Positions 2,626 through 27,669 of a DNA stretch of 64,000 nucleotides are shown here, piece by piece. Where the stretch lies: positions 820 through 64,819 of the forward strand of contig JBBQGI010000003.1 of the NCBI GenBank assembly GCA_038322875.1, read 5' to 3'. The number at the start of each line of letters is the position of its first letter. Position 1 is the first letter of the stretch. Made by a program: the position numbers and the translations under genes. The notes under the pieces were generated by a model that was given only the letters and a program-made list of their open reading frames with translations, was not told the origin of the DNA and made no database searches. This stretch comes from Candidatus Limnocylindria bacterium (GTDB lineage: Bacteria; Chloroflexota; Limnocylindria; QHBO01).

Positions 2626-3297
2626 ATGGGAGAAACGATCCGCATGCACGCAGCCGCAGGCGACACCGATACCTACCTCGCGCCGGCGCAACCCGCTCCC
2701 GGTCAGCCTGTCCTGCTGCTGCACACCTGGTGGGGCCTGAACCAGGTCATGCGCGACCTGGCCGACCGGCTCGCTGGCGACGGGTTCACGGTCATGGCGC
2801 CCGACCTGTTCGATGGCACCGTCCTGACCACCATCGACGACGCCGACGCGTTCACGACCGCCATCGAGCAGGGTGGCGGCGGGCCGGGAGGTCTCAATCC
2901 CGATCACATCATGGGCCGCGTCGCCGCCACGCTCGATCATCTCCTCGCTCACCCTGACGTGCGGGGCGACAGGGCCGCGATCGTGGCGGCGAGCTTCGGC
3001 GGCTGGTACGGCAGCCAGGTGGCAGCCGAGCGGTCCGACGTCGCCGCCTTCGTTGCCATCTACAGCGACGTCTACGACGGGCCTGGGGGAGCAGCCTACC
3101 TCGGCCACTTCGCCGAGCAGGACCAGTTCGTCGATCCTCCCCCGGCGGAGACGGCACTTGCCGAGGGGAGTGCCGCGTACGTCTACCCGCGGATGAAGCA
3201 TTGGTTCATCGAGCCGGACCGGCCGGAGTACGACACAGAGGCGGCGGAGCTCGTCTACCGCCGCACGGTCGACTTCCTCCGCGCCAACCTGGACTAG
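2626..3297 (+). CDS. dienelactone hydrolase family protein, tandem paralog
   Basis: Strong similarity to the preceding gene (LLLHTWWGLNQVMRDLADRLAGDGFTVMAPDLFDGTVLTT); the track ORF 2239..3297 has an in-frame ATG at 2626 just after the upstream stop. Confidence 0.75.
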   Translation: MGETIRMHAAAGDTDTYLAPAQPAPGQPVLLLHTWWGLNQVMRDLADRLAGDGFTVMAPDLFDGTVLTTIDDADAFTTAIEQGGGGPGGLNPDHIMGRVAATLDHLLAHPDVRGDRAAIVAASFGGWYGSQVAAERSDVAAFVAIYSDVYDGPGGAAYLGHFAEQDQFVDPPPAETALAEGSAAYVYPRMKHWFIEPDRPEYDTEAAELVYRRTVDFLRANLD

Positions 3298-4541
3298 GCC
3301 GCGGCCGCTCGAACGGTGCGCAGGTCACGGGCCACCACCACACCCAGCGCGACCGCCACCGCGGCACCGATGCCGGCCAGCAAGGCGAAGCTCGCGGTCG
3401 CGACCACATAGCCCGAGCTGAAGCTGGCAACCGCTGCCGTCGCCCAGACGAGGGCGTCGCTGGCCCCCTGCAGCCGCGCGCGATCGCCGAGCGGCGCCTC
3501 GGAGGCAAGCAGCGAGCTTCCGGCGACGAAGCCGAGGTTCCACCCCACGCCCAGCAGGAACATCGGGATCGCCAGCCCCACGCCGCTGTCCGGAATCACC
3601 GCGGCAAGCAGGCCTGCGGCAGCCAGGACCGAGAAACCCGCGAGGATCACGGCATTCGCGCCGAACCGATCGGTCGCCCGACCCGACAACGGTGAGAAGG
3701 CAAACATTCCGAGAGTGTGGGCGCTGATCACGAGGCCCACCGTCTCGAGCCCGTGACCCATGGCATGGAGGTGGTACGGCGTCATGGTCATCACCAGGGT
3801 CATCACCAGCTGGCTCGTCACCAGGGCGACAAGCGCCGTGCGACCCTGCGGCCTCCGCACCAGCTCGGCGAGCAGCCGGCGCTGAGAGGTCGGCGCATGT
3901 CCGTCGGCGCGCGCCGGTTCGTCGAGGTGCGGCTGGACCGGAGCGCGGGGACCGGCCGCTGCCACCACGAGGGCGGCGGCAAGGAAGACGAACGCCATCG
4001 CGAAGCCGCCGGCCAGCGGCAGCAATCCGAAGGTCGGCGCGACGGCTCCCGCCGGTGCCACGAGGTTCGGGCCGACCACGGCGCCGATGGTGCTGCCCCA
4101 TACGACGAAGCCGAGCGCACCGGCGCGGCGGTCTGCCGGAAAGAGGTCAGACGCGGCATAGCGGCTCAGGTTCATGGCGGCGTTGCCGAAGCCGACCAAC
4201 GCCGAAGCAACCAGCAGGAGGACCAGGGACGCGACCATGACTGCGACAACCGCGAGCGAGCCGCCTGCGACCGCCACGGAAAGCCCCAGCACGATCCCCG
4301 CGCGACGGCCTCGCCGCGCCATCAGTGATGAGAGGAGTGATGCAGCGAGTGCCGTCCCCGCAACCGCGATAGCACTCGGCCAGCCGCTCGACCCGGCGGA
4401 GCCCGTCATCTGGGGGGCCGCGAGCGACGCGACGGTGAACGTCGCGATGTAGGCGATGCTCGTCAGCGCCGCGGCCGTGAAGTAGGTACCGAGCGCGCGG
4501 GAGCGCAGTCGCTCGATCTCCGGGGTCGCAGCGGGCAGCAT
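3294..4541 (-). CDS. MFS transporter
   Basis: About 12 predicted TM segments; MFS-like loop motifs; start chosen at the internal ATG (MLPAATPEIERL...); the track ORF extends to 4643. Confidence 0.7.
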   Translation of the reverse strand: MLPAATPEIERLRSRALGTYFTAAALTSIAYIATFTVASLAAPQMTGSAGSSGWPSAIAVAGTALAASLLSSLMARRGRRAGIVLGLSVAVAGGSLAVVAVMVASLVLLLVASALVGFGNAAMNLSRYAASDLFPADRRAGALGFVVWGSTIGAVVGPNLVAPAGAVAPTFGLLPLAGGFAMAFVFLAAALVVAAAGPRAPVQPHLDEPARADGHAPTSQRRLLAELVRRPQGRTALVALVTSQLVMTLVMTMTPYHLHAMGHGLETVGLVISAHTLGMFAFSPLSGRATDRFGANAVILAGFSVLAAAGLLAAVIPDSGVGLAIPMFLLGVGWNLGFVAGSSLLASEAPLGDRARLQGASDALVWATAAVASFSSGYVVATASFALLAGIGAAVAVALGVVVARDLRTVRAAAA

Positions 4542-15734: not shown

Positions 15735-16543
15735 GCACCACCGACCCTGCCATGGCGCGCGGCTTCGACGCCTGGGCCGATGAGTACGACCGGTTCCGCC
15801 CGGGATATCCCGACGAGGTATTCGAGACCATCCAGGCGAGGCTGCAGCTCTCGGACAATCCCTCGGTGGTGGACCTGGGAGCCGGCACTGGCCGCGCCAG
15901 CCTGGCGATGGCGGCGCTGGGCTGGCGGGTGACGGCGGTTGAGCCGGGCAGATCGATGCTGGAGCTGTTGCGCGAGACCGCATCCGAGAATGGGCTGTTG
16001 GTGTCGACCATCCAGGCCAATGCCGAGGTCACCGGCCTGGACCCGACATCGGTCGACCTGGTCACCGCCGCCCAGGCGTTCCACTGGTTCGACAAGCAGG
16101 CTGCCATGGAGGAGATCGCTCGCATCCTGAAGCCCGGCGGCGGCCTGGCGCTGATCTGGAATGTCCGTGACGCCGAGCGTTCGCCATTCCTGGCCGCCTA
16201 CGCGGCCCTGCTGAAGGATTCGAGCGAGCGCGCCGACGATTCCGGCATCGGGCGCTATGAGTCAAGAGGCCGAGCCGGGACGCAACGGGCGCTGGAGGAG
16301 GCTCCGGGCTTCGATGCACCCGAGCTGATCGAGCTGCATCAGCACGTGGCCATGACCGCCGAGCAGTTCGTGGGGATGGCATTCACCGCGTCGTACGTGC
16401 GAGTCGGCATGTCGTCCGAGCGGCAGCATCAATTCCGACGCGACCTGGTCGCGCTGCTGGAACGCCACCGGCTGGGGGACGGGAAACCATTTGCCGTCCC
16501 GTATCGGGTCGACCTGTGGATCACACGAAGGAGCGGAGCATGA
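15731..16543 (+). CDS. class I SAM-dependent methyltransferase
   Basis: VVDLGAGTGRASLAMA motif I; ATGA overlap with the upstream GNAT. Confidence 0.85.
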   Translation: MSTTDPAMARGFDAWADEYDRFRPGYPDEVFETIQARLQLSDNPSVVDLGAGTGRASLAMAALGWRVTAVEPGRSMLELLRETASENGLLVSTIQANAEVTGLDPTSVDLVTAAQAFHWFDKQAAMEEIARILKPGGGLALIWNVRDAERSPFLAAYAALLKDSSERADDSGIGRYESRGRAGTQRALEEAPGFDAPELIELHQHVAMTAEQFVGMAFTASYVRVGMSSERQHQFRRDLVALLERHRLGDGKPFAVPYRVDLWITRRSGA

Positions 16544-19089
16544 CCACCACGGAGCGCTTCGACCCACGGACCTACGAGCCGGCCTGGCGCGAGCGCTGGG
16601 CCGCCGATGAGCTCTATCGGGCCGATGACGACGACCCGCGGGCCAAGCACTACCTGCTGACCATGTACCCGTACCCCTCGGGCGACCTGCACATCGGTCA
16701 CTGGTATGCCGCCACGGGGCCCGACATCGTGGCGCGCATGCGCCGCATGCAGGGCCTGAACGTGATGTTCCCGATGGGCTTCGACTCCTTCGGGCTGCCG
16801 GCCGAGAACGCGGCGATCGATCGCGGCGTGCACCCCTGGGAGTGGACGAACGCCAACGTGGACCGGATGCGGACCCAGTTCCGCTCAATGGGCTGCATGT
16901 TCGACTGGAGCCGCGAAGTCGTCACCCACGACCCCGCCTACTACCGCTGGACGCAGTGGCTCTTCGTGCAGTTCTTCCGCGCGGGGCTGGCGTATCGGGC
17001 CATGGCGCCGGTCGACTGGTGCCCCAAGGACCAGGTGGTGCTGGCACGAGAGCAGGTTGAAGGCGCCGATCGGCACTGCTGGCGCTGCGGCACGCCGGTC
17101 ATCAAGCGCGACCTGGAGCAGTGGTTCTTCCGGACCACCAAGTACGCCGATGAGCTGCTGGACTTCAGCAAGATCGACTGGCCGGACCCCATCCGCCTGA
17201 TGCAGACCAACTGGATCGGTCGCAGCGAGGGCGCCGAGATCGACTTCGCGGTGGAGGCCGATGGGGTGGCGCCGATCCGGGTCTTCACCACCCGTCCCGA
17301 CACCATCTTCGGCGCAACCTTCATGGTGCTCGCCCCTGAGCACCCGGCGGTGGCCCCGCTGACGGCCCCGGAGCGGGCCGAGGAGGTGGCCGCGTACACC
17401 GCCGCGGCGCGCCGCGAAACCGAGATCGAGCGGATGAGCACCGAGCGCGAGCGGAAGGGGGTCTTCATCGGCTCGCATGCGGTCAACCCCATGACCGAGG
17501 AGCGCATCCCGATCTGGATCGCCGACTACGTGCTGCCCGGCTACGGCACGGGCGCGATCATGGGCGTCCCCGCGCACGACGAGCGCGACTTCGCCTTCGC
17601 CACCCGCTACGACCTGCCGATCCGCTACGTGGTGCTGCCGCGAGGCGGGACGGCGCCGCAGGGCGAGGCCTTCGTGGCCCACACCGCGGACGAGGTGCTG
17701 GTCGGGTCGGGCGACTTCACGGGCATGACCGCGGCCGAGGGGATCGCGGCCATCACCGCGGAGCTGGCACGCCGCGGGCAGGGGGAGGCGGCGATCACCT
17801 ACAAGATCCGCGACTGGCTGATCAGCCGGCAGCGCTACTGGGGCGCCCCGATCCCCATCGTCTACTGCGACGAGCACGGCGCGCAGCCGGTGCCGGAGGA
17901 CCAACTGCCGGTGCTGCTGCCGCACGACGTGGACTTCGCGCCCACCGGCGTGTCGCCGCTGCAATCGAACGAGGAGTTCCTGAACGCGACCTGTCCGGTC
18001 TGCGCCGGACCGGCGCGCCGCGAGACGGACACGATGGACACCTTCGTGGACTCGTCGTGGTATTTCCTGCGCTACGCCTCGCCGCACGATGAGGAGCGCG
18101 CGTGGGATTCGGCCGCGGTGGAGGACTGGCTGCCGGTCGACCTGTACACCGGCGGCGCCGAGCACGCGGTCCTGCACTTCCTGTACGCCCGCTTCTTCGT
18201 CAAGGCGCTGCGCGACATGGGGCAGCTGAACTTCGACGAGCCGTTCATGGCGGTGCGCAACCAGGGGCAGATCCTGGGCGCCGACCACCACCGCATGAGC
18301 AAGTCGCGCGGCAACGTCGTCAACCCTGACGACCTGACCTCGCGTTTCGGCTCGGACACAGTGCGCTGCTTCCTGATGTTCATCGGGCCGTGGGACATGG
18401 GCGGGCCGTGGAACCCGTCGAGCATCGAGGGGGTGCATCGGTTCCTGGGTCGAGTCTGGGCGGTGGCCCAGGCTGGCCCGGGCGGGCAGCCTCGGCATGT
18501 TCCCGGGATGCCACCCCCACAAAGCCTGGCCGGTGAGCAGCCCGGCAGCGGCGGAGAAGGGCGTGAGACGCTGGGCGCCATCGAGGGGGGTCAGCGCGGG
18601 CTGCGGCATGCGACCCATGTGGCCATCAAGGAGGTCGGCGAGGACTACGCCGAGTTCCACTTCAATACCGCGCTCTCGAAGATGATGGGGCTGACCAACG
18701 CGCTGGGCGACGCGCGCGACGCCGGCCTGGCCGGGACCGATGCCTACGCCGAGGCGGTCGACGCGCTGCTCCTGCTGCTGGCGCCGATGGCGCCGCACAT
18801 CAGCGAGGAGCTGTGGTCGCGGCGCGGGAAGCCGTACAGCATCCACCAGCAGGCGTGGCCGGCCTACGACGCCGGGCTCGTCATCGCCGACACGATCGAG
18901 CTGCCGGTGCAGGTCGACGGGAAGCTGCGCGATCGGTTGGTGGTGGCCCCCGATACGGCTCCCGACGAGATCGAGCGGCTGGCGTTGGCCAGTGAGCGGG
19001 TGCAGGCCCACCTGAAGGGACGCACGCCTCGCAAGGTGGTGCAGATCCCCGGGCGCCTGGTGAATATCGTCACGCCCAAGAACGACTGA
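16540..19089 (+). CDS. leuS: leucine--tRNA ligase
   Basis: 849 aa bacterial-type LeuRS; HIGH (PSGDLHIGHW) and KMSKS (RMSKSRGN) motifs; GAAGGAG SD; ATGA overlap with the upstream gene. Confidence 0.95.
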   Translation: MTTTERFDPRTYEPAWRERWAADELYRADDDDPRAKHYLLTMYPYPSGDLHIGHWYAATGPDIVARMRRMQGLNVMFPMGFDSFGLPAENAAIDRGVHPWEWTNANVDRMRTQFRSMGCMFDWSREVVTHDPAYYRWTQWLFVQFFRAGLAYRAMAPVDWCPKDQVVLAREQVEGADRHCWRCGTPVIKRDLEQWFFRTTKYADELLDFSKIDWPDPIRLMQTNWIGRSEGAEIDFAVEADGVAPIRVFTTRPDTIFGATFMVLAPEHPAVAPLTAPERAEEVAAYTAAARRETEIERMSTERERKGVFIGSHAVNPMTEERIPIWIADYVLPGYGTGAIMGVPAHDERDFAFATRYDLPIRYVVLPRGGTAPQGEAFVAHTADEVLVGSGDFTGMTAAEGIAAITAELARRGQGEAAITYKIRDWLISRQRYWGAPIPIVYCDEHGAQPVPEDQLPVLLPHDVDFAPTGVSPLQSNEEFLNATCPVCAGPARRETDTMDTFVDSSWYFLRYASPHDEERAWDSAAVEDWLPVDLYTGGAEHAVLHFLYARFFVKALRDMGQLNFDEPFMAVRNQGQILGADHHRMSKSRGNVVNPDDLTSRFGSDTVRCFLMFIGPWDMGGPWNPSSIEGVHRFLGRVWAVAQAGPGGQPRHVPGMPPPQSLAGEQPGSGGEGRETLGAIEGGQRGLRHATHVAIKEVGEDYAEFHFNTALSKMMGLTNALGDARDAGLAGTDAYAEAVDALLLLLAPMAPHISEELWSRRGKPYSIHQQAWPAYDAGLVIADTIELPVQVDGKLRDRLVVAPDTAPDEIERLALASERVQAHLKGRTPRKVVQIPGRLVNIVTPKND

Positions 19090-19096
19090 AATGTTC

Positions 19097-19120
19097 GCTA
19101 AGCGGTCGCCAAGCGGTCGC
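19097..19120. repeat. tandem 10-nt direct repeat AAGCGGTCGC-c-AAGCGGTCGC at the leuS/island junction
   Basis: Two adjacent copies beginning 11 nt after the leuS stop, exactly where GC content drops. Confidence 0.5.
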
Positions 19121-19166
19121 AGAGTAGGCTGACCAACATGCCGCACGCAATCGGGATTACGACGGG

Positions 19167-19379
19167 ATGACGCACTCAGTGCGACAGATTCGCCTCCAAA
19201 GTGACGAACTGACCTTCTGGGTGGAGGTCCGCGCTTGCACTGAAGACCGGCGGCTAGCAGTCGCTTTTCTCGCTGGAGATCCCGAAATCGGAATGGGTCC
19301 AACCGAGCAGGATGCGATTCTCGATGCCCTCAAACCTCTAGGCGAAGCGGCTTCCCGCCTTCTTACCGAGAGCCTCTAA
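19167..19379 (+). CDS. hypothetical protein (island)
   Basis: 70 aa ORF in the low-GC region; no recognisable motif. Confidence 0.25.
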   Translation: MTHSVRQIRLQSDELTFWVEVRACTEDRRLAVAFLAGDPEIGMGPTEQDAILDALKPLGEAASRLLTESL

Positions 19380-19687
19380 TAGTCCGGGAGGTCCTGAATG
19401 GCTAGGCGATAAGGTGCGCGGCGCCGGGACGATTGTGGTCGACGCGACCTCGCTCAAGGCCGCGAGCATGCTGCTCGGCATGGCATCTCCCCGGAATCGA
19501 GGGCATTAAGAAATTCAAGGAAGCGACCGAGGTCGGACTCGACGTCGTCGAGTACCTGTCGAAGGCGGATGCGCCCGCCCAGCCGCAGGACACCTGACCC
19601 TTGGGAGTGCGCGTAACTGCACGCTACTCCCAGGCCACCACGTTGTGGTATTGGCCTGCTTACCTCCTGGCCGGCTACCGCTCCGGA

Positions 19688-20146
19688 CTAGTAGCCCGCG
19701 GCGAACTCTCTCGCCTGAGCCTCAGTAACCCCAGGGCCTATCCAGGCCGTATACCGACAGCCCGCCTCCGCCCAGCTGAGGGTGATTTGCCCTCGCGGTG
19801 GATCTCCTATGTTGAAAAGCGCTGCGTGCTGCCCGCGAACGACAACGGCGCTCGGGTCATTCGGCGCTACGGTTGCGGGATCGATGATCGCGAACTGGCC
19901 AACAAGCTGACTGACCTCATTCTGTCCATCACCCCAAACGTACAAGACCCCGTAGTCGCCCTGGACTTGGTGAGGAGATCCGGGATCCCCGCCCAAGGGA
20001 AGTACCCTCGGGGCCACGGCGCTGCACGCTGAGGTAGAGGGTGAGATAGACGGTAATGCCGACTGGGAGGTGGTGCATGCCCCGAACAAAAGCGCCAGGG
20101 TGATTGCCACGGTCGCGCGAATGAATACCCTGCTAGTCATCGGCAA
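19688..20146 (-). CDS. lipoprotein (island cargo)
   Basis: Signal peptide with lipobox (ITLALLFGAC|T); last gene of the minus-strand island operon. Confidence 0.5.
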   Translation of the reverse strand: MPMTSRVFIRATVAITLALLFGACTTSQSALPSISPSTSACSAVAPRVLPLGGDPGSPHQVQGDYGVLYVWGDGQNEVSQLVGQFAIIDPATVAPNDPSAVVVRGQHAALFNIGDPPRGQITLSWAEAGCRYTAWIGPGVTEAQAREFAAGY

Positions 20147-20735
20147 CCGGCACTAACCCCGGGCCAATTCCGTGGTGACGACCGTCCGCTACAAACACGA
20201 CCAAATCATATGTCGTTAGAAGCGTTCCGCGACCCTGAACGACGCCCAATGGGTCAACAAGGAACGCTGACGGGGTGGGAAGGAAGGCAGCATCGGGCTC
20301 CGAGATGACCACCCAGTCACCGGCCGATGGGGTGCCTACGGTTCCCACCGTTAGCACATGCAACTCGTAGTCGAGGACCATCGGCCGCACATCATTCAGG
20401 CCGGCAAGGATCGTTGTGCATGCCTCGCAATCGGCCTTGACCAAGATCAGCAGAGCCCATCGCGAAGTGAGAATGGCGGCGATATGGGACGAGACGGGCC
20501 GGCCCACAAGCAGGTAGTCCGTGCTGGGCCAATTTGGTTCATCGTGGTCGGATTCTGAGCCGTGTCCCAGATCCATCGCGTGGTCGGTTGCCAGATGGTC
20601 ACGCCAAGATCGCTGTACACCCTCCATCGCGAGGGCTTGTCGGCTCACGACCACCGTCAGAATTCCGATCAGTGAGAGTTGGACGAGCTCGGTTAGCTCC
20701 ACGAGGGCGAGCCTCGACGCGGTAGCAAATGCCAT
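20133..20735 (-). CDS. thioredoxin-fold thiol-disulfide oxidoreductase (MauD/TlpA-like)
   Basis: CxxC motif (LLILVKADCEACTT) in a thioredoxin-like context; N-terminal TM anchor if started at MAFATAS...; immediately downstream of the MauE-like gene; start is uncertain (track ORF 20133..20972). Confidence 0.5.
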   Translation of the reverse strand: MAFATASRLALVELTELVQLSLIGILTVVVSRQALAMEGVQRSWRDHLATDHAMDLGHGSESDHDEPNWPSTDYLLVGRPVSSHIAAILTSRWALLILVKADCEACTTILAGLNDVRPMVLDYELHVLTVGTVGTPSAGDWVVISEPDAAFLPTPSAFLVDPLGVVQGRGTLLTTYDLVVFVADGRHHGIGPGLVPVADD

Positions 20736-21175
20736 GCGACCGGGACTACAAGCGCAATGGATAGGATCGCAGTTGGGGTCAGGCTGCGGGATGGCCCGAG
20801 GACAGCAACACCTACGGAGGCCACCACCAAGAACGCATTTCGCAGGAAGCTCGTTCGGTCTGGTGGTCGCGTTGATGGTCCAAAGCAACCACAGCCGATT
20901 GACAATGCCCGGCTCCTCCATAGCGCCCCGGTTGCGACAACTAGACCGAAAGCAGACAGCAGCCCAGGCCACACCGGGAAGCTTGCCAGGACGATCGCAA
21001 CGGCGACTTCAGCACCGACCGTCACTGGCGCGAGCGCATTTGGCAAAGGCAGGCCAAGGGCCGTAAGCCATTCCACGTGGTTTCGCCAACTGATCGCCTT
21101 GCCGACCGCTGCCAACAGCCAGACCGCGGCGAGACCTACCGCTAAGACCGTCGCCAGGACTGGTGCTTCAAACAT
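20693..21175 (-). CDS. MauE/DoxX-family membrane protein (methylamine-utilisation MauE-like)
   Basis: 160 aa; 4 TM; conserved GCGCFG motif typical of MauE-like proteins. Confidence 0.6.
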   Translation of the reverse strand: MFEAPVLATVLAVGLAAVWLLAAVGKAISWRNHVEWLTALGLPLPNALAPVTVGAEVAVAIVLASFPVWPGLLSAFGLVVATGALWRSRALSIGCGCFGPSTRPPDRTSFLRNAFLVVASVGVAVLGPSRSLTPTAILSIALVVPVAWHLLPRRGSPSWS

Positions 21176-21412
21176 CGACTCGGGCCCGACGCAAATAGTC
21201 CTGCGCTGGCTTCAGGTCCATCGCCTCAAGGCCCTCAGGGGTTGAGATGAACCAGCGCTGAGCCCCTATCGAACTGTCGGCCAGAACCGCTCGTGCCTCG
21301 AATCCGCGCCCAGCGTAGGGGGCCGGCAAATCGAACAACAGGATGCGCGTCCCGCGTCGGTGCTCGATCCACGCGTCCAACAGCGTTCCCTCCGACGTCG
21401 GCGGACCTATCC

Positions 21413-21952
21413 TCACGGGTCGATGCAGGGATGGTCGCAACAGTGGTACTGATCGAACTCGCGACGCTTGGCACGAATTCGTTCACGGAAGGCTATTCCG
21501 TTAGCGTTCCAGCTGTTGTTGGTCAAACTCTGTTGGGTAAAGTTGGTCCCCATGCATACCGTGCCTGTGCATCCCGATGTGCCGCATGGATTCCAAAACT
21601 TACAGTTGGCGTGCGGTCTCAATCGGTCAGCGAGGTCCGGCGTTGCCAGGTGTGAGACCAAGAATGCCAGGGAGCATTCCTGGAAGAAGCTAGGGCCGGA
21701 GATGTTCCCTGATCCGCACCCACCGAAGCACCCGTTGAGCATGATGCCCATGGTTTTGCAGTTGCAGCCACATTGGCTGATGGCCTGAGCGTCATCCCAA
21801 CTGCTGCAAACCACGATCTGACCGCTATAGCGGACGAAGAAATCGTAGCCAGATGTGCAGTAGTTGGTCGTTGTGTTCTGGTGGGCGTTGGGTGAGCCAG
21901 TATGGTGCACGACCACATAGGCTCGCCGAGGAGCCGTCCCATAGTGGCTCAT
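21413..21952 (-). CDS. N-acetylmuramoyl-L-alanine amidase, PGRP/Amidase_2 (T7-lysozyme-like) domain with Cys-rich C-terminus
   Basis: By-eye alignment with T7 lysozyme: YVVVHHTGS / GYDFFVRYSGQIV / TMGIMLNGCF correspond to the FVHCSAT / GYHFIIKRDG / IGVCLVGG blocks; many Cys in the C-terminal half. Confidence 0.65.
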   Translation of the reverse strand: MSHYGTAPRRAYVVVHHTGSPNAHQNTTTNYCTSGYDFFVRYSGQIVVCSSWDDAQAISQCGCNCKTMGIMLNGCFGGCGSGNISGPSFFQECSLAFLVSHLATPDLADRLRPHANCKFWNPCGTSGCTGTVCMGTNFTQQSLTNNSWNANGIAFRERIRAKRREFDQYHCCDHPCIDP

Positions 21953-22284
21953 GTCAAAGCGTCCCGGGTGTATTCCTTGTCGAGTCGGGCGAGGTCGCCC
22001 GGCTCAATCACTTCCACTATGTCGAAGCCCGTCTCTGGCACATCCCACATTGTTTCAGCGGGCGAACACGGCAGCTCTGATCGGCGAGTGTCGGGCTGGG
22101 GCAGACGTGCTTCCTCGCCCGCGGCTCGAGCGGCCGCGGGGAGCGCATGGCTCAACACAACGCTTGCCGAAGTGAAAAGAGCAAGCTCGACAAACCGACG
22201 TCTGCTCAGGTTCGCGCCAGGCTGGGAATCCACGGGCGCCTTCGGGGGCTCCGGGTCGGGGGTCGCCCATTGGTTTCGCGGCAT
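21949..22284 (-). CDS. Tat-signal protein (possibly the N-terminal part of the downstream amidase)
   Basis: Twin-arginine signal (SRRRFVELALFTSASVVLSHALPAAARA); ATGA overlap with the amidase ORF. Confidence 0.45.
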   Translation of the reverse strand: MPRNQWATPDPEPPKAPVDSQPGANLSRRRFVELALFTSASVVLSHALPAAARAAGEEARLPQPDTRRSELPCSPAETMWDVPETGFDIVEVIEPGDLARLDKEYTRDALT

Positions 22285-22342
22285 GTTCCTCGCTCCGGTC
22301 CATCGTTAGGGATTGCGAATGCAAAAGCAAGTCCCGTTCAGC

Positions 22343-22582
22343 TCACTTCTGGTGCCCGTGACGGCTATTGAGCCACAGCGCCAGGCCGAGTACCCCAGCC
22401 GTCGCGGCTCCCGCGCCGATAGACAGCCCGGCCCCACACGGGACGCCGTAGCCGAACACTGACGAACACTGCGGAGGTAGGGAGTCGACCCCGCCCGTGG
22501 GTGCAAGCAGCACCCACACGACGAGACCGGCGAGGAGCGGAACAGCAATCCTGACTCCCATCAGCCAAGAACCCTGCAGCAT
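22343..22582 (-). CDS. small membrane protein
   Basis: Two hydrophobic helices; lies between the protease and the Tat/amidase genes in the same strand array; the track ORF starts at 22636. Confidence 0.35.
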   Translation of the reverse strand: MLQGSWLMGVRIAVPLLAGLVVWVLLAPTGGVDSLPPQCSSVFGYGVPCGAGLSIGAGAATAGVLGLALWLNSRHGHQK

Positions 22583-22601
22583 CAGCGTCACTCTTCGGCA
22601 T

Positions 22602-23858
22602 TCAGTTGACAGCGACGTTGACGCCCAGGGCGTCATCTATCCGATCGGCTCGGGAGAACAAGTCTCGGTCGAAAGGCCAGACCGGATCGTAGCGCCAGCC
22701 CTGATGGAGCCCGTAGGCAGTATTGCCCCAGTACACGGACCCACCACTGTCGCCGGGAGCCGCCAATCTCGCCGCCATCTGCACGAGGCTGCACGCAGCT
22801 CCGTTGCAGACGTTGAGCTGGATGACTTGCTGGCAGTCCTGGAAGCTCGCGATGCCGTTCTTACAGAGGGACTGCCCCACGACCGGAGCACCCACGGCAG
22901 CGACATCGCGCCTGTTGACTTCGGTTGCGTTGGCGTTACCCGCGTAGAAATCATCGGGTTTAGCCTGAGGTCCGGTATGCCACTGGAAGTCACCGTGAGC
23001 CCCGATATGGCCTGCCTGAATGTTCAGAGCTACACCGTCGTCGGATAGAGTATTCGAGCAATGTCCAGCGGTGCTAATGCCACTCACCCCTGAGGAGGTC
23101 CTGACCACAAACCCTGACGTGCAAACCCCCGAAAGACTCTCGCCGCCCATGTGTTCGGTGTTGCTGTCAGTACCGCCCAGAGCCGGGAGGTTTGATCGGA
23201 CCACGGAGACGGTGATGCTGTCGAGAATGTCTCCTGCGCCGGAATCGATGAGCTTCTCCGTGGCGCCTGCGCGAAGGTCATCGAGCACGGAATCTGCCAC
23301 GCCGCCGTCCAGTGCAACGACAGTCGTAATCTGGCGGGTATCAAAGTCGAACGAGGTCGACGCGTCTCGGACCCCGGCCGTGTCGAATGCGGCGTAATGG
23401 ACTGTCGCAATCGCCTTCTCAAGTTCGAGCTCGGTGAACCCCAAGTCGGTTTGCACCTCGACCTTAACGTTTGCGTGGCTCTTACCGAACGTGTCGATGA
23501 TCGCGAGGGCGCTATCAGGGGCGCCAGCCGCGAAGGCAACCCACGCGCCCCCAGCATCGACGATCTCTGCACCGGTGAAGGCCTCTGGAGCCACCTCGCG
23601 GACCGTCGACACCGCAAGGGCAAAATTATCGTTCCACGCGTAGCGGTCGATTGCCTCCTGGAGGGACATACCATGTTGACCAGCGACGGCTTTCAGGTCC
23701 TCGAGCTCCGCATCACTGATAGGATCATCGATCTGAGGCTGCGCCACGTCCGGGAGGGGCAGGCTCTCGCCTCCGGCGGCAGTGTCTGTCTGTGCCACGA
23801 GAACGGCCGTCATCAGCGTCAGCATTACGACAACCGACAGGCCACCCCGTCTCACCAT
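22602..23858 (-). CDS. secreted S1E family serine peptidase (alpha-lytic protease/streptogrisin-like) with N-terminal pro-domain
   Basis: Signal peptide; catalytic His (TAGHC) and Ser (GDSGGSVY) motifs; ~160 aa pro-region typical of alpha-lytic protease precursors. Confidence 0.8.
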   Translation of the reverse strand: MVRRGGLSVVVMLTLMTAVLVAQTDTAAGGESLPLPDVAQPQIDDPISDAELEDLKAVAGQHGMSLQEAIDRYAWNDNFALAVSTVREVAPEAFTGAEIVDAGGAWVAFAAGAPDSALAIIDTFGKSHANVKVEVQTDLGFTELELEKAIATVHYAAFDTAGVRDASTSFDFDTRQITTVVALDGGVADSVLDDLRAGATEKLIDSGAGDILDSITVSVVRSNLPALGGTDSNTEHMGGESLSGVCTSGFVVRTSSGVSGISTAGHCSNTLSDDGVALNIQAGHIGAHGDFQWHTGPQAKPDDFYAGNANATEVNRRDVAAVGAPVVGQSLCKNGIASFQDCQQVIQLNVCNGAACSLVQMAARLAAPGDSGGSVYWGNTAYGLHQGWRYDPVWPFDRDLFSRADRIDDALGVNVAVN

Positions 23859-24027
23859 GGCCCTTCCTTTCAGCTATCAGCCTTCAGCATTACCGGGGGG
23901 ATCCCGGAATCGATTCCCGCTAAAGCGCGGGCGCCCGGCGTCCCACTATCATATGACTCCTCGTCAAGCCTGAAATTACCGGGCGTCGCCCGGACCAACG
24001 AGCCAACCGGGGCATGGACCGTTTCCG

Positions 24028-24636
24028 GTGCTCGTTCGCCAGCGCAACTCGCACCTGATCGAGGGGGTGCATCGCTTCCTGGGTCGCGTCTGGCCGGTGG
24101 CCCAGGCGACGGGCGGCGCAGGCGACGCCGGCGGGGCGGAGCGCGGGCTGCGGCATGCCACCCATCGGGCCATCAAGGAGGTCGGCCAGGACTACGCCGG
24201 GTTCCACTTCAACACGGCGCTCTCGAAGATGATGGGGCTGACCAACGCGCTCGGCGACGCACGCGATGCCGGCCTGGCCGGGACCGATGCCTACGCCGAG
24301 GCGGTCGATGCGCTGCTCTTGCTGCTGGCGCCGATGGCGCCGCACATCAGCGAGGAGCTGTGGTCGCGGCGCGGGAAGCCGTACAGCATCCACCAGCAGG
24401 CCTGGCCTGCCTTCGACCCTGCGCTGGTCACGGCCGACACGATCGAGCTGCCGGTGCAGGTCGATGGCAAGCTGCGCGATCGGCTGGTGGTGGCACCGGG
24501 GACCGCCCCTGAGGAGATCGAGCGCCTAGCATTGGCGAGCGAGCGAGTGCAGGCGCACCTGAAAGGCCGGACACCGGCCAAGGTGGTCCAGATCCCCGGT
24601 CGCCTGGTGAATATCGTCACGCCGGGGAGTAATTGA
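24028..24636 (+). pseudogene. leuS 3' remnant (diverged duplicate of leuS codons ~640-849)
   Basis: Homology to leuS 18440..19089 begins at IEGVHRFLGRVW. It is about 88% nt identical by eye, lacks a ~117-nt segment present in the intact gene, and has no 5' part, start or RBS. Confidence 0.85.
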
Positions 24637-24681
24637 AGTGTCCGCGGGTGCCCAGCCGGAGACCGGGTTCAGTGACTCAGT

Positions 24682-25605
24682 TCAGATTGGTCGGCGCCGC
24701 CACACAACCCACGCGGCCAGTCCGGTCGACCCAGAGGTGACGACCGCCAGAACGCCCGCTTCACGAGCTACCCACGTCCAATAGTCGCTACCAGGAATCA
24801 TCAAGTACCGGCCGAATTCCGTCCCGGGCGGCAGATTTTCGATATTTCGCTCCGTGGTCACCGTCCCGTCCGGAAGGATCGCCACTGGCCCGAGCGTCAT
24901 CCCGTTTATGAACGGCGAATCCGGCGTGAGATCTGAAGGGTCGATCACGACTGCCTCAGCGCGACGCCAGACATCCAGGGCAAGCGTCACTCCGACGATG
25001 ACGCTCGCGGACAAGGCAATGGCTACCAAGACCGCCGGCAGTGTGCGGCCGAGGAAGGCACCCGCAAGGACTGCAAGTAGAAGCGCCACGATGCCCCTCA
25101 TCGGGACAATCAAGCCTCGCTGATCGTACCGAAGCAGGCCCGGGTCATCCCCCGCGAGGCGGGTCCAAGCCAGTTGCTCACTGGCCGCCGCCATCACCAG
25201 CAATAGCGCCACTGCAACCAGCAGCAACGGCCAGACTCGGCCTGCCAACCAACCGACACGATTGACGGCAAGGGACCAGGAGAGTTGAGCCGTGCGGAGT
25301 TCCAATTCGCGAGCCACGATCGGGACTCCCAGGACAACCCCCGCGAGCATCGGCGCAGGCACGACGAGCCACATCGCCAGGCTTGCGCTTTGGTCCCAGA
25401 TGGCGAACTGCGGCTGCACGACACCGCAATTGGTTGCGTTCACTGCCGTAAGCCGGAAGCAGCTTGGATATTGGGCGGCGAGCCCGCCTAGCCGCCAGCC
25501 GATGAAGAGCACCGCCGCCAACCAGGCGCTTACCGCCAAGACGATCGCGGTCACCTCAAAACGGTGGAGCCGGAATACCAGTCGCATCCAGGTCAAGCTC
25601 CTCAA
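24682..25605 (-). CDS. ABC-2 type transporter permease
   Basis: 307 aa; 6 TM; coupled by an ATGA overlap to the upstream ATPase. Confidence 0.7.
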   Translation of the reverse strand: MRSLTWMRLVFRLHRFEVTAIVLAVSAWLAAVLFIGWRLGGLAAQYPSCFRLTAVNATNCGVVQPQFAIWDQSASLAMWLVVPAPMLAGVVLGVPIVARELELRTAQLSWSLAVNRVGWLAGRVWPLLLVAVALLLVMAAASEQLAWTRLAGDDPGLLRYDQRGLIVPMRGIVALLLAVLAGAFLGRTLPAVLVAIALSASVIVGVTLALDVWRRAEAVVIDPSDLTPDSPFINGMTLGPVAILPDGTVTTERNIENLPPGTEFGRYLMIPGSDYWTWVAREAGVLAVVTSGSTGLAAWVVWRRRPI

Positions 25606-26456
25606 TTCACGGCCTCCCCCGACTGGCGAAGAGCAGAAAGATGGCCCAACACGATCTCCTCCAGTGAAGCCGGTCGCGACTCCGGAGGTTCGGCAGCACG
25701 TTCATGGTGAATGAGGCTGAGCGCCATCCCGCCGGGGTCGGGGAACTGGCCCACGATCTGTTCCTGGTGACTCACCGACGATATCGAGAAGCACGCCAGG
25801 GCATCCTCAATGGAGGTCTGCAACAGCAGCTTCCCGCTACCTAGCACGATGAGCCGGTCGCACGCCTGCTCAATATCTGTGACGATGTGGGATGAGAGAA
25901 GGGCCGTCGTACCTTCGCCTCTGACGGCGCCGACGACAAGCTGGAGGAATTCGCGCCTGGCGAGCGGATCCAGCTGGGCGAGTGGCTCGTCCAAGAGCAG
26001 AACCTCAGGGTGGGTCGCCAGAGCGATGGACAGGATGACCTGAGCCTGTTGGCCGCCGGAGAGCCGACCGCCTAGGCTTTCGAGCGGAATGCCCAACGCA
26101 TCAAGCCGACTTCGTGCCATTTCGCGGTCGAATGCTGGTCGCAGGAACCCGGCCATGCGCAGGTGCTCCTCGACTGAAAGGCTCTCGTAGAGTGCGGGTG
26201 ACTGGGAGACGTAGCCAACGCGACTCAGTGCGCTTCGCCGGTCGCGCCAGGCGTCATGGCCCGCAACGAGAGCGGAACCGGTGGTGGGTCGCTCAAAGCC
26301 GACCCAACTCCGCAGGAGTGTGGACTTCCCGGCACCATTCGGCCCAACCAGTGCCGTGATGCCGCCTGCGGCGATCTGGAGGTTGATCCCGCGCAATGCC
26401 CATCGGCGGCGCCCAAAGCGCTTGCCGAGGTCATTCGCCCCAAGGATGGGCATCAC
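25602..26456 (-). CDS. ABC transporter ATP-binding protein
   Basis: Walker A (GPNGAGKST), ABC signature (LSGGQQAQV), Walker B (LLLDEP). Confidence 0.9.
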   Translation of the reverse strand: MMPILGANDLGKRFGRRRWALRGINLQIAAGGITALVGPNGAGKSTLLRSWVGFERPTTGSALVAGHDAWRDRRSALSRVGYVSQSPALYESLSVEEHLRMAGFLRPAFDREMARSRLDALGIPLESLGGRLSGGQQAQVILSIALATHPEVLLLDEPLAQLDPLARREFLQLVVGAVRGEGTTALLSSHIVTDIEQACDRLIVLGSGKLLLQTSIEDALACFSISSVSHQEQIVGQFPDPGGMALSLIHHERAAEPPESRPASLEEIVLGHLSALRQSGEAVN

Positions 26457-26574
26457 CGGGAGATTCGGTTCAAGCGACCGAATTGTACCGTGCCAGAACT
26501 ATTGTCGGCGGCCACAATCATGCGATACGGTGACGCTCAACCTATCCTAATTGCCAAGAGGAAGGAGCGTCGCG

Positions 26575-27006
26575 ATGCGAATGAGGGAGTCGACTCACAG
26601 ATCGATCGGGAAGCAGCTGCGGACCCTTGTCGTGGCCGTGGTCTTGGCGAGCGTCACTGTTGCAGGGGCGCCGAAACCAGTATCAGCGTCAACTCCTTGC
26701 TCTGTAACTCTCTTTGCGCCAACGACCAACGGGGTGGTAGCCACGCATGTCGCGTACGGTGACTGCCCGCCTAGCCCCACGATGGATTGGATCAAGGGGC
26801 AGCTTTACAGCCTCTTCTTCGCCTGGCCGACTCTTCAGGCGAGTTGCATTAACAACAACAACAGTTCGAATCCTCAAGGGTGCCAGTCGCAATACAACTG
26901 CAACGGATCAGGGACCCTCGAGCACTTCGGCAAGGTCAACGTCCGTGACATCGCTGGCGGAGAGACAGGCTGGCGCGAAAGCGGGCACGCGTGGCTCACG
27001 TGCTGA
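26575..27006 (+). CDS. small secreted Cys-rich protein (bacteriocin/toxin-like, unknown family)
   Basis: GAGGAAGGAG SD 7 nt upstream of the ATG; Sec signal peptide; ~100 aa mature part with 7 Cys and an NNNNSSN tract; low GC; divergent from the ABC exporter. Confidence 0.55.
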   Translation: MRMRESTHRSIGKQLRTLVVAVVLASVTVAGAPKPVSASTPCSVTLFAPTTNGVVATHVAYGDCPPSPTMDWIKGQLYSLFFAWPTLQASCINNNNSSNPQGCQSQYNCNGSGTLEHFGKVNVRDIAGGETGWRESGHAWLTC

Positions 27007-27060
27007 CGGCCTTCAGCTTATTGCGATAACGCCGGGTACGGAGAACTCGCTTTCTGTCGA

Positions 27061-27669
27061 ATGGCCCGACGCAAGGACATGACTGCGATCACTGCGCTCT
27101 TCGCACTGATCGCAGTCAGCATGTCCGGCTGCCTTGCGCTCCAATCTAGCAGCGATGCCAATAGTCACTCTCGCCTAGTGGCTGCTACTTGGTTTGATGC
27201 GGCCTCCAAGGATCAGCAGAGTCTCCTAGAAGACGAGATCATCACCGCCGATGAGTACGGGCAGGCCCTGAATGCTGGAAGGCGGTGCATGGAAGACAAA
27301 GGGTTCCATGTTTCTCCCCTCCAGGACCTGCCTGATAGAATCCGGCGCGACTTCATCGTCTACGCCGGCACGCGGTCAGATGACGATGTCACCCCCGAAT
27401 GGCAACGGTGTCGCGATCAACACTACGGCGTCGTTGAAGGCATATGGCTTCTCCAGCACGTTCGCCAGGACACGAGCAAGGTCGAGGAAGAACTCCTCAG
27501 GTGTCTCGCTGGCAACAGCATCACGGGAGCTACCATTGGCATGGCCGACTCGGACCTCGTTCAGTTGCTGTACCAGCGGGCGGCTTCGGAGCAGGCGTGG
27601 ACTTGTCGGGAAGTCTTTCTTATCACGTCTGGGAACTTGCAACCACTTCCGCCAGGAGGCCCGCCGTAG
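27061..27669 (+). CDS. lipoprotein (unknown function)
   Basis: Lipobox signal (ALIAVSMSGC|L); low GC; 202 aa. Confidence 0.55.
   Translation: MARRKDMTAITALFALIAVSMSGCLALQSSSDANSHSRLVAATWFDAASKDQQSLLEDEIITADEYGQALNAGRRCMEDKGFHVSPLQDLPDRIRRDFIVYAGTRSDDDVTPEWQRCRDQHYGVVEGIWLLQHVRQDTSKVEEELLRCLAGNSITGATIGMADSDLVQLLYQRAASEQAWTCREVFLITSGNLQPLPPGGPP

Follow-up and report, generated by a model that had tools for sequence, protein, structure and literature searches.

Introduction

Two MauE proteins have been found to replace DsbB in Escherichia coli, for which their CXC motif was needed, and more than 15,000 members of the family show a CXC followed by F-G, together with a conserved Lys in helix 1 and a conserved Glu in helix 2; they were proposed to act via a thioredoxin-fold partner (bioRxiv 10.64898/2026.03.05.709764). 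Outside the mau clusters, MauE with or without MauD was found in Streptomyces by decRiPPter next to products with at least eight Cys, and the authors read such neighbours as a dedicated modification or folding step (PMC7794033). With respect to export, in the melC operon of Streptomyces the signal-less tyrosinase MelC2 is carried out of the cell by MelC1, which has a twin-arginine translocation (Tat) signal, a pattern defined as RR-x-[FGAVML]-[LITMVF], and there are intracellular paralogues that lack a Tat signal (PMC2758597). Here we describe a 64,000-nucleotide stretch from a Candidatus Limnocylindria bacterium (the window hereafter), in which a low-GC island of 5 kb contains six overlapping genes, named A to F, for a Tat-signal protein (A), a Cys-rich amidase of predicted peptidoglycan recognition protein (PGRP) fold (B), a small protein (C), a MauE-family membrane protein (D), a MauD-like protein (E) and a lipoprotein (F).

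As judged from the gene content of related loci, A-F (19688-22284) is a conserved, horizontally mobile cassette centred on the amidase B. A first-pass annotation of this DNA had presented the combination as undescribed, which holds for this cassette with its probably Tat-targeted, Cys-rich PGRP-fold amidase, whereas the general idea of a MauE-based redox module was already known from MauA and from other MauE contexts (bioRxiv 10.64898/2026.03.05.709764; PMC7794033). The reading to which we incline, as reasonably though not strongly probable, is that B leaves the cell via Tat attached to A, that D and E form its five disulfides and that F is its partner outside. The features of the island and its edges are collected in Table 1.

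Table 1. Genes, open reading frames (ORFs) and repeats of the island and its edges, in window coordinates (aa, amino acids)
Feature	Coordinates	Strand	Remarks
leuS, intact	16516-19089	+	Left neighbour of the island
leuS 3' end, left copy	18424-19076	+	Within intact leuS; left island edge
70-aa ORF	19167-19379	+	Inside the island, opposite strand; also on L001
F, lipoprotein	19688-20146	-	Lipobox LFGAC (...TLALLFGAC); PROSITE-type pattern, hydropathy
E, 189-aa MauD-like protein	20133-20702	-	GTG start at 20702
D, MauE-family membrane protein	20693-21175	-	Pfam PF07291, 55 bits (cut-off 27)
C, 82-aa protein	21168-21416	-	Called on L001; motif LDxW
B, 179-aa Amidase_2 / PGRP / T7-lysozyme-fold protein	21413-21952	-	Pfam Amidase_2, 30.1 bits (cut-off 26)
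A, 111-aa twin-arginine-signal protein	21949-22284	-	SRRRFV, hydrophobic region, AxA-like site
79-aa protein, two hydrophobic segments	22343-22582	-	ORF and hydropathy; two Cys in the intervening loop
Secreted serine protease precursor, S1E type (streptogrisin / alpha-lytic)	22602-23858	-	TAGHC and GDSGGS motifs
ORF of the displaced leuS copy	24028-24636	+	Anticodon-binding domain only (Pfam Anticodon_1)
leuS 3' end, displaced second copy	24058-24623	+	Right island edge

Results

A six-gene cassette that recurs in other loci

Eight co-oriented genes occupy the minus strand of the island. From A to F, each gene overlaps the following one, by 4 nucleotides (nt) at A-B, 4 at B-C, 8 at C-D, 10 at D-E and 14 at E-F, whereas the two junctions upstream are gaps, of 19 nt between the protease and the 79-aa protein and of 58 nt between the latter and A. 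These overlaps and gaps are compatible with a single transcript of all eight genes.

For comparison, the DNA around relatives of B was inspected and the window proteins were run by tblastn against the resulting loci, labelled L002 to L014, where L002 is Microcella alkaliphila; the window island was also seen as L001. All or most of A-F were found in seven other loci. The genes stand together in L003, L004, L005, L006, L009 and L012/L013, and in Microcella alkaliphila the set is present without E, with an insertion sequence element coming after D. As homologues of the six genes recur jointly elsewhere, A-F are not chance ORFs. By contrast, no homologues of the protease or of the 79-aa protein were found in the related loci with a readable upstream flank. 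Therefore, from the absence of this pair elsewhere and from its gaps compared to the overlaps of A-F, the unit is the six-gene cassette of 19688-22284. The protease and the 79-aa protein may nevertheless be co-transcribed with the cassette and share its disulfide pair, without being part of the unit.

The first-pass annotation had listed seven genes in a tight array on the minus strand of 19688-23858, and all seven are present there, in an array that is indeed tight. Its list lacked C, which lies between the amidase and the MauE gene and is conserved in other loci, and its statement that all island genes run on the minus strand has to be amended for the plus-strand 70-aa ORF. The CxxC protein that it proposed exists, but its start had been placed at 20972, whereas the GTG at 20702 gives the protein of 189 aa. 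The Amidase_2 assignment of B and the MauE assignment of D, with its GCGCFG, were both above the Pfam cut-offs (Table 1), and the Tat signal of A (SRRRFV plus a hydrophobic stretch) and the LFGAC lipobox of F were found as described.

On L001, automatic gene calling took an antisense ORF at 2925-3413 (window 20757-21245) and missed the MauE gene. As this gene is missed by automatic calling, the cassette would be under-counted by annotation-based surveys.

The family of B is very small. It forms 13 clusters among 5.8 billion proteins, a full hidden Markov model search gave 65 cluster representatives at E <= 1e-3 among 1.84 billion, and only one of 185,579 species genomes, that of Microcella alkaliphila, encodes B, to which a metagenome scan added two more loci. 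None of the cassette proteins could be named from NCBIfam.

The surroundings of the cassette differ among loci. A TrwC relaxase gene adjoins the full cassette in L004 and L012, accompanied in L004 by an integrase gene. It is common for conjugative elements of Gram-positive bacteria to encode a dedicated peptidoglycan hydrolase, such as CwlT of ICEBs1 or TcpG of pCW3. Such data would suit a role of B as the cell-wall hydrolase for DNA transfer by an integrative mobile element, with the other genes serving the maturation of B, but we consider this very unlikely: transfer genes are lacking in the window island and in L011 and L014, all three of which lie between housekeeping genes, and tblastn searches with B and with D against 72,556 plasmids did not find a single copy.

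B, a predicted zinc amidase with ten additional conserved Cys

When the family profile of B was run against the sequences of the PDB, only Amidase_2 proteins were matched, among them LysCS (6srt, E 6e-5), T7 lysozyme (1lba, E 8e-4) and PGRPs. In the 39 relatives over which conservation was counted, H17, Y36, H114 and C133 are invariant and T131 is kept in 87%, with C133 lying in a T-V-C-x-G motif that is the counterpart of the T-x-C-P-G of PGRPs. The catalytic set is thus complete, and B is, as far as its residues predict, a zinc amidase of the PGRP / T7-lysozyme fold. C123 had also been considered as the zinc ligand and was dropped, as a wider alignment points to C133 in T-x-C-x-G.

Compared to the known Amidase_2 and PGRP proteins (LysCS 6srt, T7 lysozyme 1lba, PGRP-LB), B has the same fold, the same His, His, Cys zinc site, the Tyr and the Thr/Lys position. 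It differs from them in a conserved N-terminus, MSHYSxAPRR, in some 10 residues inserted after the second His and ahead of the Cys that binds zinc, in a Cys-rich C-terminal tail and in its additional conserved Cys; its family is also very small. The protein has 15 Cys, of which 11 are conserved, one as the zinc ligand and ten others (32, 63, 65, 75, 79, 93, 117, 123, 172 and 176) at 82% or above. Being even in number, the ten extra conserved Cys fit with five disulfides. No signal peptide was seen in B on inspection of its sequence.

D and E, a MauE/MauD-like redox pair

D matches the Pfam MauE family with an E value of 1.3e-14 over profile positions 3-126 of 128. It has five hydrophobic segments, with a CGC-FG motif (GCGCFG) in the loop after the third, and K26, E56, C95, C97, G99, R112 and N113 are invariant among six cassette homologues. 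In a profile comparison by hhalign, D aligned with the MauE of Paracoccus denitrificans with a probability of 92.5% (E 5e-7).

E has a membrane helix at its N-terminus, next an acidic linker and then a thioredoxin fold with C92-E-A-C95 and a cis-Pro-type P144, and C92, C95 and P144 are invariant in its homologues. An AlphaFold2 model built from six homologues (predicted local distance difference test, pLDDT, 72.5) has a beta-alpha-beta-...-beta-beta-alpha order with the CxxC at the N-terminus of a helix, and its top Foldseek neighbours were 3lwa (a secreted thiol-disulfide isomerase), DsbF (4pq1), CcmG, TlpA and ResA, with probability 1.0 and E values from 6e-4. Sequence profiles were less sensitive, E reaching 14.6 bits against the Pfam AhpC-TSA cut-off of 26 and its own profile giving a best E value of only 0.5 against PDB sequences. 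Thus, the thioredoxin fold with a CxxC that had been assigned to this protein is sustained by the model and by Foldseek, while the proposed Redoxin/AhpC-TSA profile match stays under its threshold. Against the MauD of P. denitrificans the hhalign match was weak (probability 38%, E 3e-4), with the CxxC and the Pro aligned. The likeness of E to true MauD lies in the fold, in the position of the gene and in an unusual N-terminus.

The mau clusters are the closest arrangement to that of the cassette. In those of five proteobacteria the order is mauE, mauD, mauA, and all five MauA proteins carry an RR signal along with 10-14 Cys. As in the cassette, a CGC MauE with five segments is followed by a membrane-anchored CxxC protein of thioredoxin fold (e.g. 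P. denitrificans plasmid 1, 218908-220681), the pair adjoins a Cys-rich Tat-targeted client and the N-tail of MauD or E is uncharged. The differences are that the client of the cassette is a PGRP-fold zinc amidase instead of the small subunit bearing tryptophan tryptophylquinone, that a small protein of its own bears the Tat signal, that mauB, F, G and J are absent, that the host genome is high in GC and that E is similar to MauD only weakly in sequence. As regards the decRiPPter clusters, their clients are short precursor peptides, whereas here the client would be a folded enzyme of 179 aa with a Tat escort (PMC7794033).

D also has the CXC-F-G, the Lys of the first transmembrane (TM) segment and the Glu of the second described for MauE proteins; these features are tied to DsbB-replacing activity and make D a predicted oxidase. 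In contrast to the generalist MauE proteins of that study, whose core consists of four helices and whose CXC is periplasmic, D is bound to a cassette, has a fifth segment and shows a charge pattern that points the opposite way (bioRxiv 10.64898/2026.03.05.709764).

The reverse redox direction is conceivable, with D and E as reductants or isomerases that keep the Cys of B, or its zinc Cys, reduced outside the cell, where the Cys would bind metal. The structural neighbours of E, mostly of the TlpA, ResA, CcmG and StoA type, point that way, and so does an earlier study that, according to its citation in bioRxiv 10.64898/2026.03.05.709764, suggested a reductase role for MauE. We regard this as highly improbable, given that MauE has no DsbD-like features, that it replaced the oxidase DsbB in two assays in a CXC-dependent manner (bioRxiv 10.64898/2026.03.05.709764) and that an even count of ten extra conserved Cys suits disulfides.

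A second redox pair was observed in L012 (11272-12463), in which a four-segment MauE/DoxX protein is joined by a DsbA/Thioredoxin_4 protein whose N-tail is strongly basic. It looks like a general outward-facing disulfide pair next to the one of the cassette.

A as the probable Tat escort of B

The Tat signal sequence of A in the window is SRRRFVELALFTSASVVLSHALPAAARA, and it is followed by a short mature part with a conserved PC[AS]P motif. Homologues of about 100 aa were found by tblastn immediately 5' of B in L002-L007, L012 and L013, and in L009 the upstream ORF matches A by position and motif. An RR-x-[FL]-[LIVMF] motif is kept in all 13 A homologues or fusions. The stop codon of A overlaps the start of B in the window (ATGA) and likewise in L003, L005, L009 and L012, while L004 and L007 have short gaps instead. 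Moreover, five relatives (P0019, P0021, P0029, P0032 and the L014 ORF) have a Tat signal fused to B; some of these fusions include an A-like PC[AS]P segment and others do not.

From these fusions and from the translational coupling, the export of B together with A can be inferred, and A is the probable Tat escort of the signal-less B. A would not be an exoprotein in its own right. The possibility that A and B were one gene split by a frameshift was also considered and was ruled out, as they are separate, coupled genes in eight loci; true A-B fusions occur in other lineages.

The arrangement is like that of MelC1 and MelC2 in that a small Tat-signal gene precedes that of a signal-less metal enzyme; MelC2 leaves the cell in complex with its helper, as B would with A. 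The two systems differ in the enzyme, a zinc amidase here and a copper tyrosinase there, and in that A is unrelated to MelC1 in sequence and the cassette adds a disulfide module, C and F.

C and F

C has neither a signal peptide nor Cys and holds its position after B in the related loci, as judged from tblastn and gene order. It had no match in Pfam, NCBIfam or PADLOC. A NapD-type Tat chaperone was considered for C and rejected, with an hhalign probability of 0.05%.

The 10 aligned homologues of F share a domain of about 110 aa in which two Cys and a GDPGxG...GCxYTxW motif are conserved, and no Pfam family was found for it even at E <= 1. Lipobox-like sequences are also present in the F proteins of L014, L002 and L006, and F is placed outside wherever its anchor is readable. 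Both proteins take part in fusions: C-TM-F proteins joined via a lipobox segment are encoded in L006 and L002, B-C-TM-F single chains were found in P0016 and P0017, and a B-C junction in the fragment P0037. P0016 corresponds to 8001-9434 of L011, where it stands alone between pth and a gene for 1147 aa, with no MauE nearby.

In L004, L009 and L012, the gene of an extracytoplasmic function (ECF) sigma factor is immediately followed by that of an anti-sigma-like membrane protein with the F domain as its outer part, which suggests that the cassette is under sigma/anti-sigma control in these loci; no such pair of ECF sigma factor and F-domain membrane protein is present in the window island. These proteins, together with the B-C-TM-F chains, which are laid out like a one-component transmembrane signalling protein, could point to an envelope signalling or regulatory module, in which F would be a sensor and B would bind or trim peptidoglycan fragments to make or remove the signal. 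In animals, PGRP-fold proteins serve as sensors, and RNA polymerase is a further target of T7 lysozyme. On the other hand, no sigma factor lies beside the cassette in the window island or in L005, and B keeps all of the catalytic residues, which are often lost in sensor PGRPs. We consider a signalling module distinctly unlikely.

A proposed route for B and the points against it

According to the reading that we favour, B would fold and bind zinc in the cytoplasm, where the small cytoplasmic protein C might help or hold it. B would then bind A and cross the membrane by Tat as a hitchhiker, like MelC2 on MelC1. Its ten free Cys would become five disulfides through oxidation by E, and D would re-oxidise E and hand the electrons on to a quinone; DsbA and DsbB work in this way, and the same has been proposed for MauD/MauE and their Tat-exported client MauA of 12 Cys. 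Once outside, B would cleave or bind peptidoglycan stem peptides, and F, anchored to the outward side of the membrane, would be its partner, in the role either of inhibitor or immunity protein or of sensor.

Several data weigh against this route. L011 and L014 retain B, C and F, between housekeeping genes, with no MauE or CxxC gene nearby, so the D/E pair is not obligatory. In P0016 and P0017 the amidase domain would be cytoplasmic if F is outside, unlike in the relatives with a Tat signal. The structure model of B is of moderate quality (pLDDT 69.5), with its Cys-rich loops below 50. The neighbours of E in the structure comparison include the reductants TlpA, ResA and CcmG, so the modelled fold would leave the redox direction unfixed, and the roles proposed for C and F are guesses. 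Finally, the positive-inside rule, applied with a home-made hydropathy script, predicts that both the cassette pair and classical MauE/MauD face the cytoplasm.

The data behind this last prediction are as follows. In all eight E proteins no Lys or Arg is found ahead of the single TM segment and several follow it directly; six of them were scored by script (3-4 Lys/Arg within 15 residues) and those of L004 and L006 were read from the sequence. The five true MauD analysed, from alpha-, beta- and gammaproteobacteria (mauD genes at 19470-20072 of L016 and in L017-L020), likewise have none before the helix, which is followed by RQxGxLxER, with two after it, and an RQ after the TM segment is common to MauD and to the E proteins of the window and L005. 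Controls taken from the same loci, all of clear orientation, differ in this respect: 1-5 Lys/Arg precede the TM segment in the F anchors, in the DsbA-like protein of L012 and in the protease signal. The cassette D and the P. denitrificans MauE share five segments, a neutral or acidic N-tail and Lys/Arg-rich stretches in loop 1, the CGC loop and the C-tail; for the window D the count is of about 9 on one side versus 1 on the other.

If taken at face value, these charges would place the redox sites of D and E in the cytoplasm, so that the disulfides of B would be made before export, meeting the demand of Tat for a folded state, and the five-segment MauE and MauD of the classical clusters would do the same for MauA. 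Oxidation at the cytoplasmic face would explain the twin-arginine signals on both types of client, MauA and B, both of which are Cys-rich. The second pair of L012 is in line with this, as its MauE has four segments and the N-terminus of its DsbA is cytoplasmic, which leaves the DsbA domain outside. Furthermore, C is cytoplasmic and is fused to B in some relatives, and engineered cytoplasmic oxidation (CyDisCo) permits the Tat export of disulfide proteins (PMC9995818). Against it, the argument is a simple count of charges under the positive-inside rule, made with a home-made script, and R112 and N113 of the CGC loop are invariant and may be functional residues instead of topology signals. In addition, the two MauE proteins able to rescue an E. 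coli dsbB mutant work on DsbA clients of the periplasm, where TOPCONS also puts their CXC (bioRxiv 10.64898/2026.03.05.709764), and a cytoplasm rich in thioredoxin reductase would work against disulfide formation. Thus, for the cassette and for the classical pair alike, installation of the client disulfides in the cytoplasm before Tat export is possible but doubtful.

The protease and the 79-aa protein

In the protease of the island, a signal peptide and a pro-region of about 200 aa precede the catalytic domain, which contains 6 Cys. Searched against PDB sequences with phmmer, it matched 2sfa (E 1.8e-5) and SGPA (E 5.3e-5), and its His, Asp and Ser align with those of the S1E proteases (TAGHC, D and GDSGG). 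No Pfam or NCBIfam family was found at E <= 0.1, including Trypsin, Trypsin_2 and Pro_Al_protease. Therefore, the S1E assignment of the first-pass annotation is backed at the level of PDB sequences and of the aligned triad, although the Trypsin_2 and alpha-lytic pro-domain matches that it suggested looking for in Pfam did not appear. With respect to the streptogrisin / alpha-lytic family (MEROPS S1E), the likeness lies in the triad motifs, the long pro-region and the similarity to SGPA and SFase-2, while the score below the Pfam models and a Cys pattern unlike that of SGPA set the protein apart. In tblastn searches, distant relatives were found on Nocardiopsis and Clavibacter plasmids, the one in Clavibacter being annotated as an S1 family peptidase. 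The 79-aa protein was found only in the window and on L001, where its start is called identically.

The first-pass annotation had considered these genes and the cassette as one operon of secreted bacteriolytic enzymes, protease plus amidase, that attack other bacteria, with a MauE/MauD-like pair serving both. Lytic members are known in both classes, such as the alpha-lytic protease of Lysobacter and the PGRP and phage amidases. The eight genes do share a strand with short gaps, and the protease combines a signal peptide with a 6-Cys catalytic domain. The comparison of loci argues otherwise, since the protease and the 79-aa protein are missing from all the other cassette loci with a readable upstream flank, and since the amidase family keeps its A, C and F partners even without the MauE and thioredoxin-like genes. 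The bacteriolytic role is, besides, a conjecture from enzyme class, and S1E proteases are mostly general secreted proteases. Consequently, we find this explanation rather unlikely, and the proposed unit of bacteriolytic enzymes plus a folding pair does not agree with the related loci. The idea of a dedicated disulfide module fares better for the amidase, through the conservation of B, D and E together in other loci; the protease lends it no support.

The island and its neighbourhood

The island lies between leuS and comEA/comEC. Its GC content is 0.60-0.62, versus 0.68-0.70 outside, and at third codon positions it is 0.62-0.74 in the island genes versus 0.93 in leuS. At its edges, the two leuS 3'-end repeats (18424-19076 vs 24058-24623) are about 90% identical, apart from an indel of about 35 aa; the indel is located in the copy belonging to the intact gene. 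L001, a contig of 5,116 bp of the Logan assemblies found by exact-match look-up, carries the island and ends at the repeats. The island is thus an insertion of foreign composition at the 3' end of leuS, and it looks like the insertion brought or displaced a replacement leuS 3' end. No integrase was found inside the 5-kb island.

Searches for other elements gave no positive signals: Rfam at E <= 1 found no known RNA element in 18900-24800, consensus-based promoter and terminator scans performed no better than on shuffled sequence, and PADLOC had no defence-system match. The plus-strand 70-aa ORF had no match in Pfam, NCBIfam or PADLOC.

Beyond the leuS fragment, the GC content stays low (0.58-0.64) over 24682-27669. 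This stretch contains an ABC permease and an ATPase on the minus strand, a 202-aa ORF without family and, at 26551-27006, a secreted protein of 151 aa with 7 Cys and no family; the conserved comEA and comEC come after it. It may derive from another, older insertion into this leuS-comEA gap.

Discussion

The cassette may serve competition, wall remodelling, signalling or DNA transfer. It defines a very rare bacterial family of PGRP-fold amidases, predicted to be rich in disulfides, with A, C and F as partners of no known family.

If the escort of B by A and the oxidation of its Cys by D and E are true, the cassette would join the mau clusters as a second, unrelated example in which a MauE/MauD-type pair is tied to a single Tat-targeted, Cys-rich client, and the arrangement of methylamine dehydrogenase would thereby be a pattern and not a one-off. 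It would bear on the practical and old question of how proteins with many disulfides are reconciled with an export pathway that takes only folded proteins. Being small, self-contained and mobile, the cassette could be transferred to a test host, which makes it a compact system in which to ask where and when MauE/MauD make disulfides. Should the pair act on the cytoplasmic face instead, cytoplasmic disulfides would be the work of a natural, quinone-linked system, the counterpart of the engineered CyDisCo plus Tat strains, and this system would be a natural model for making and secreting disulfide-bonded proteins through Tat.

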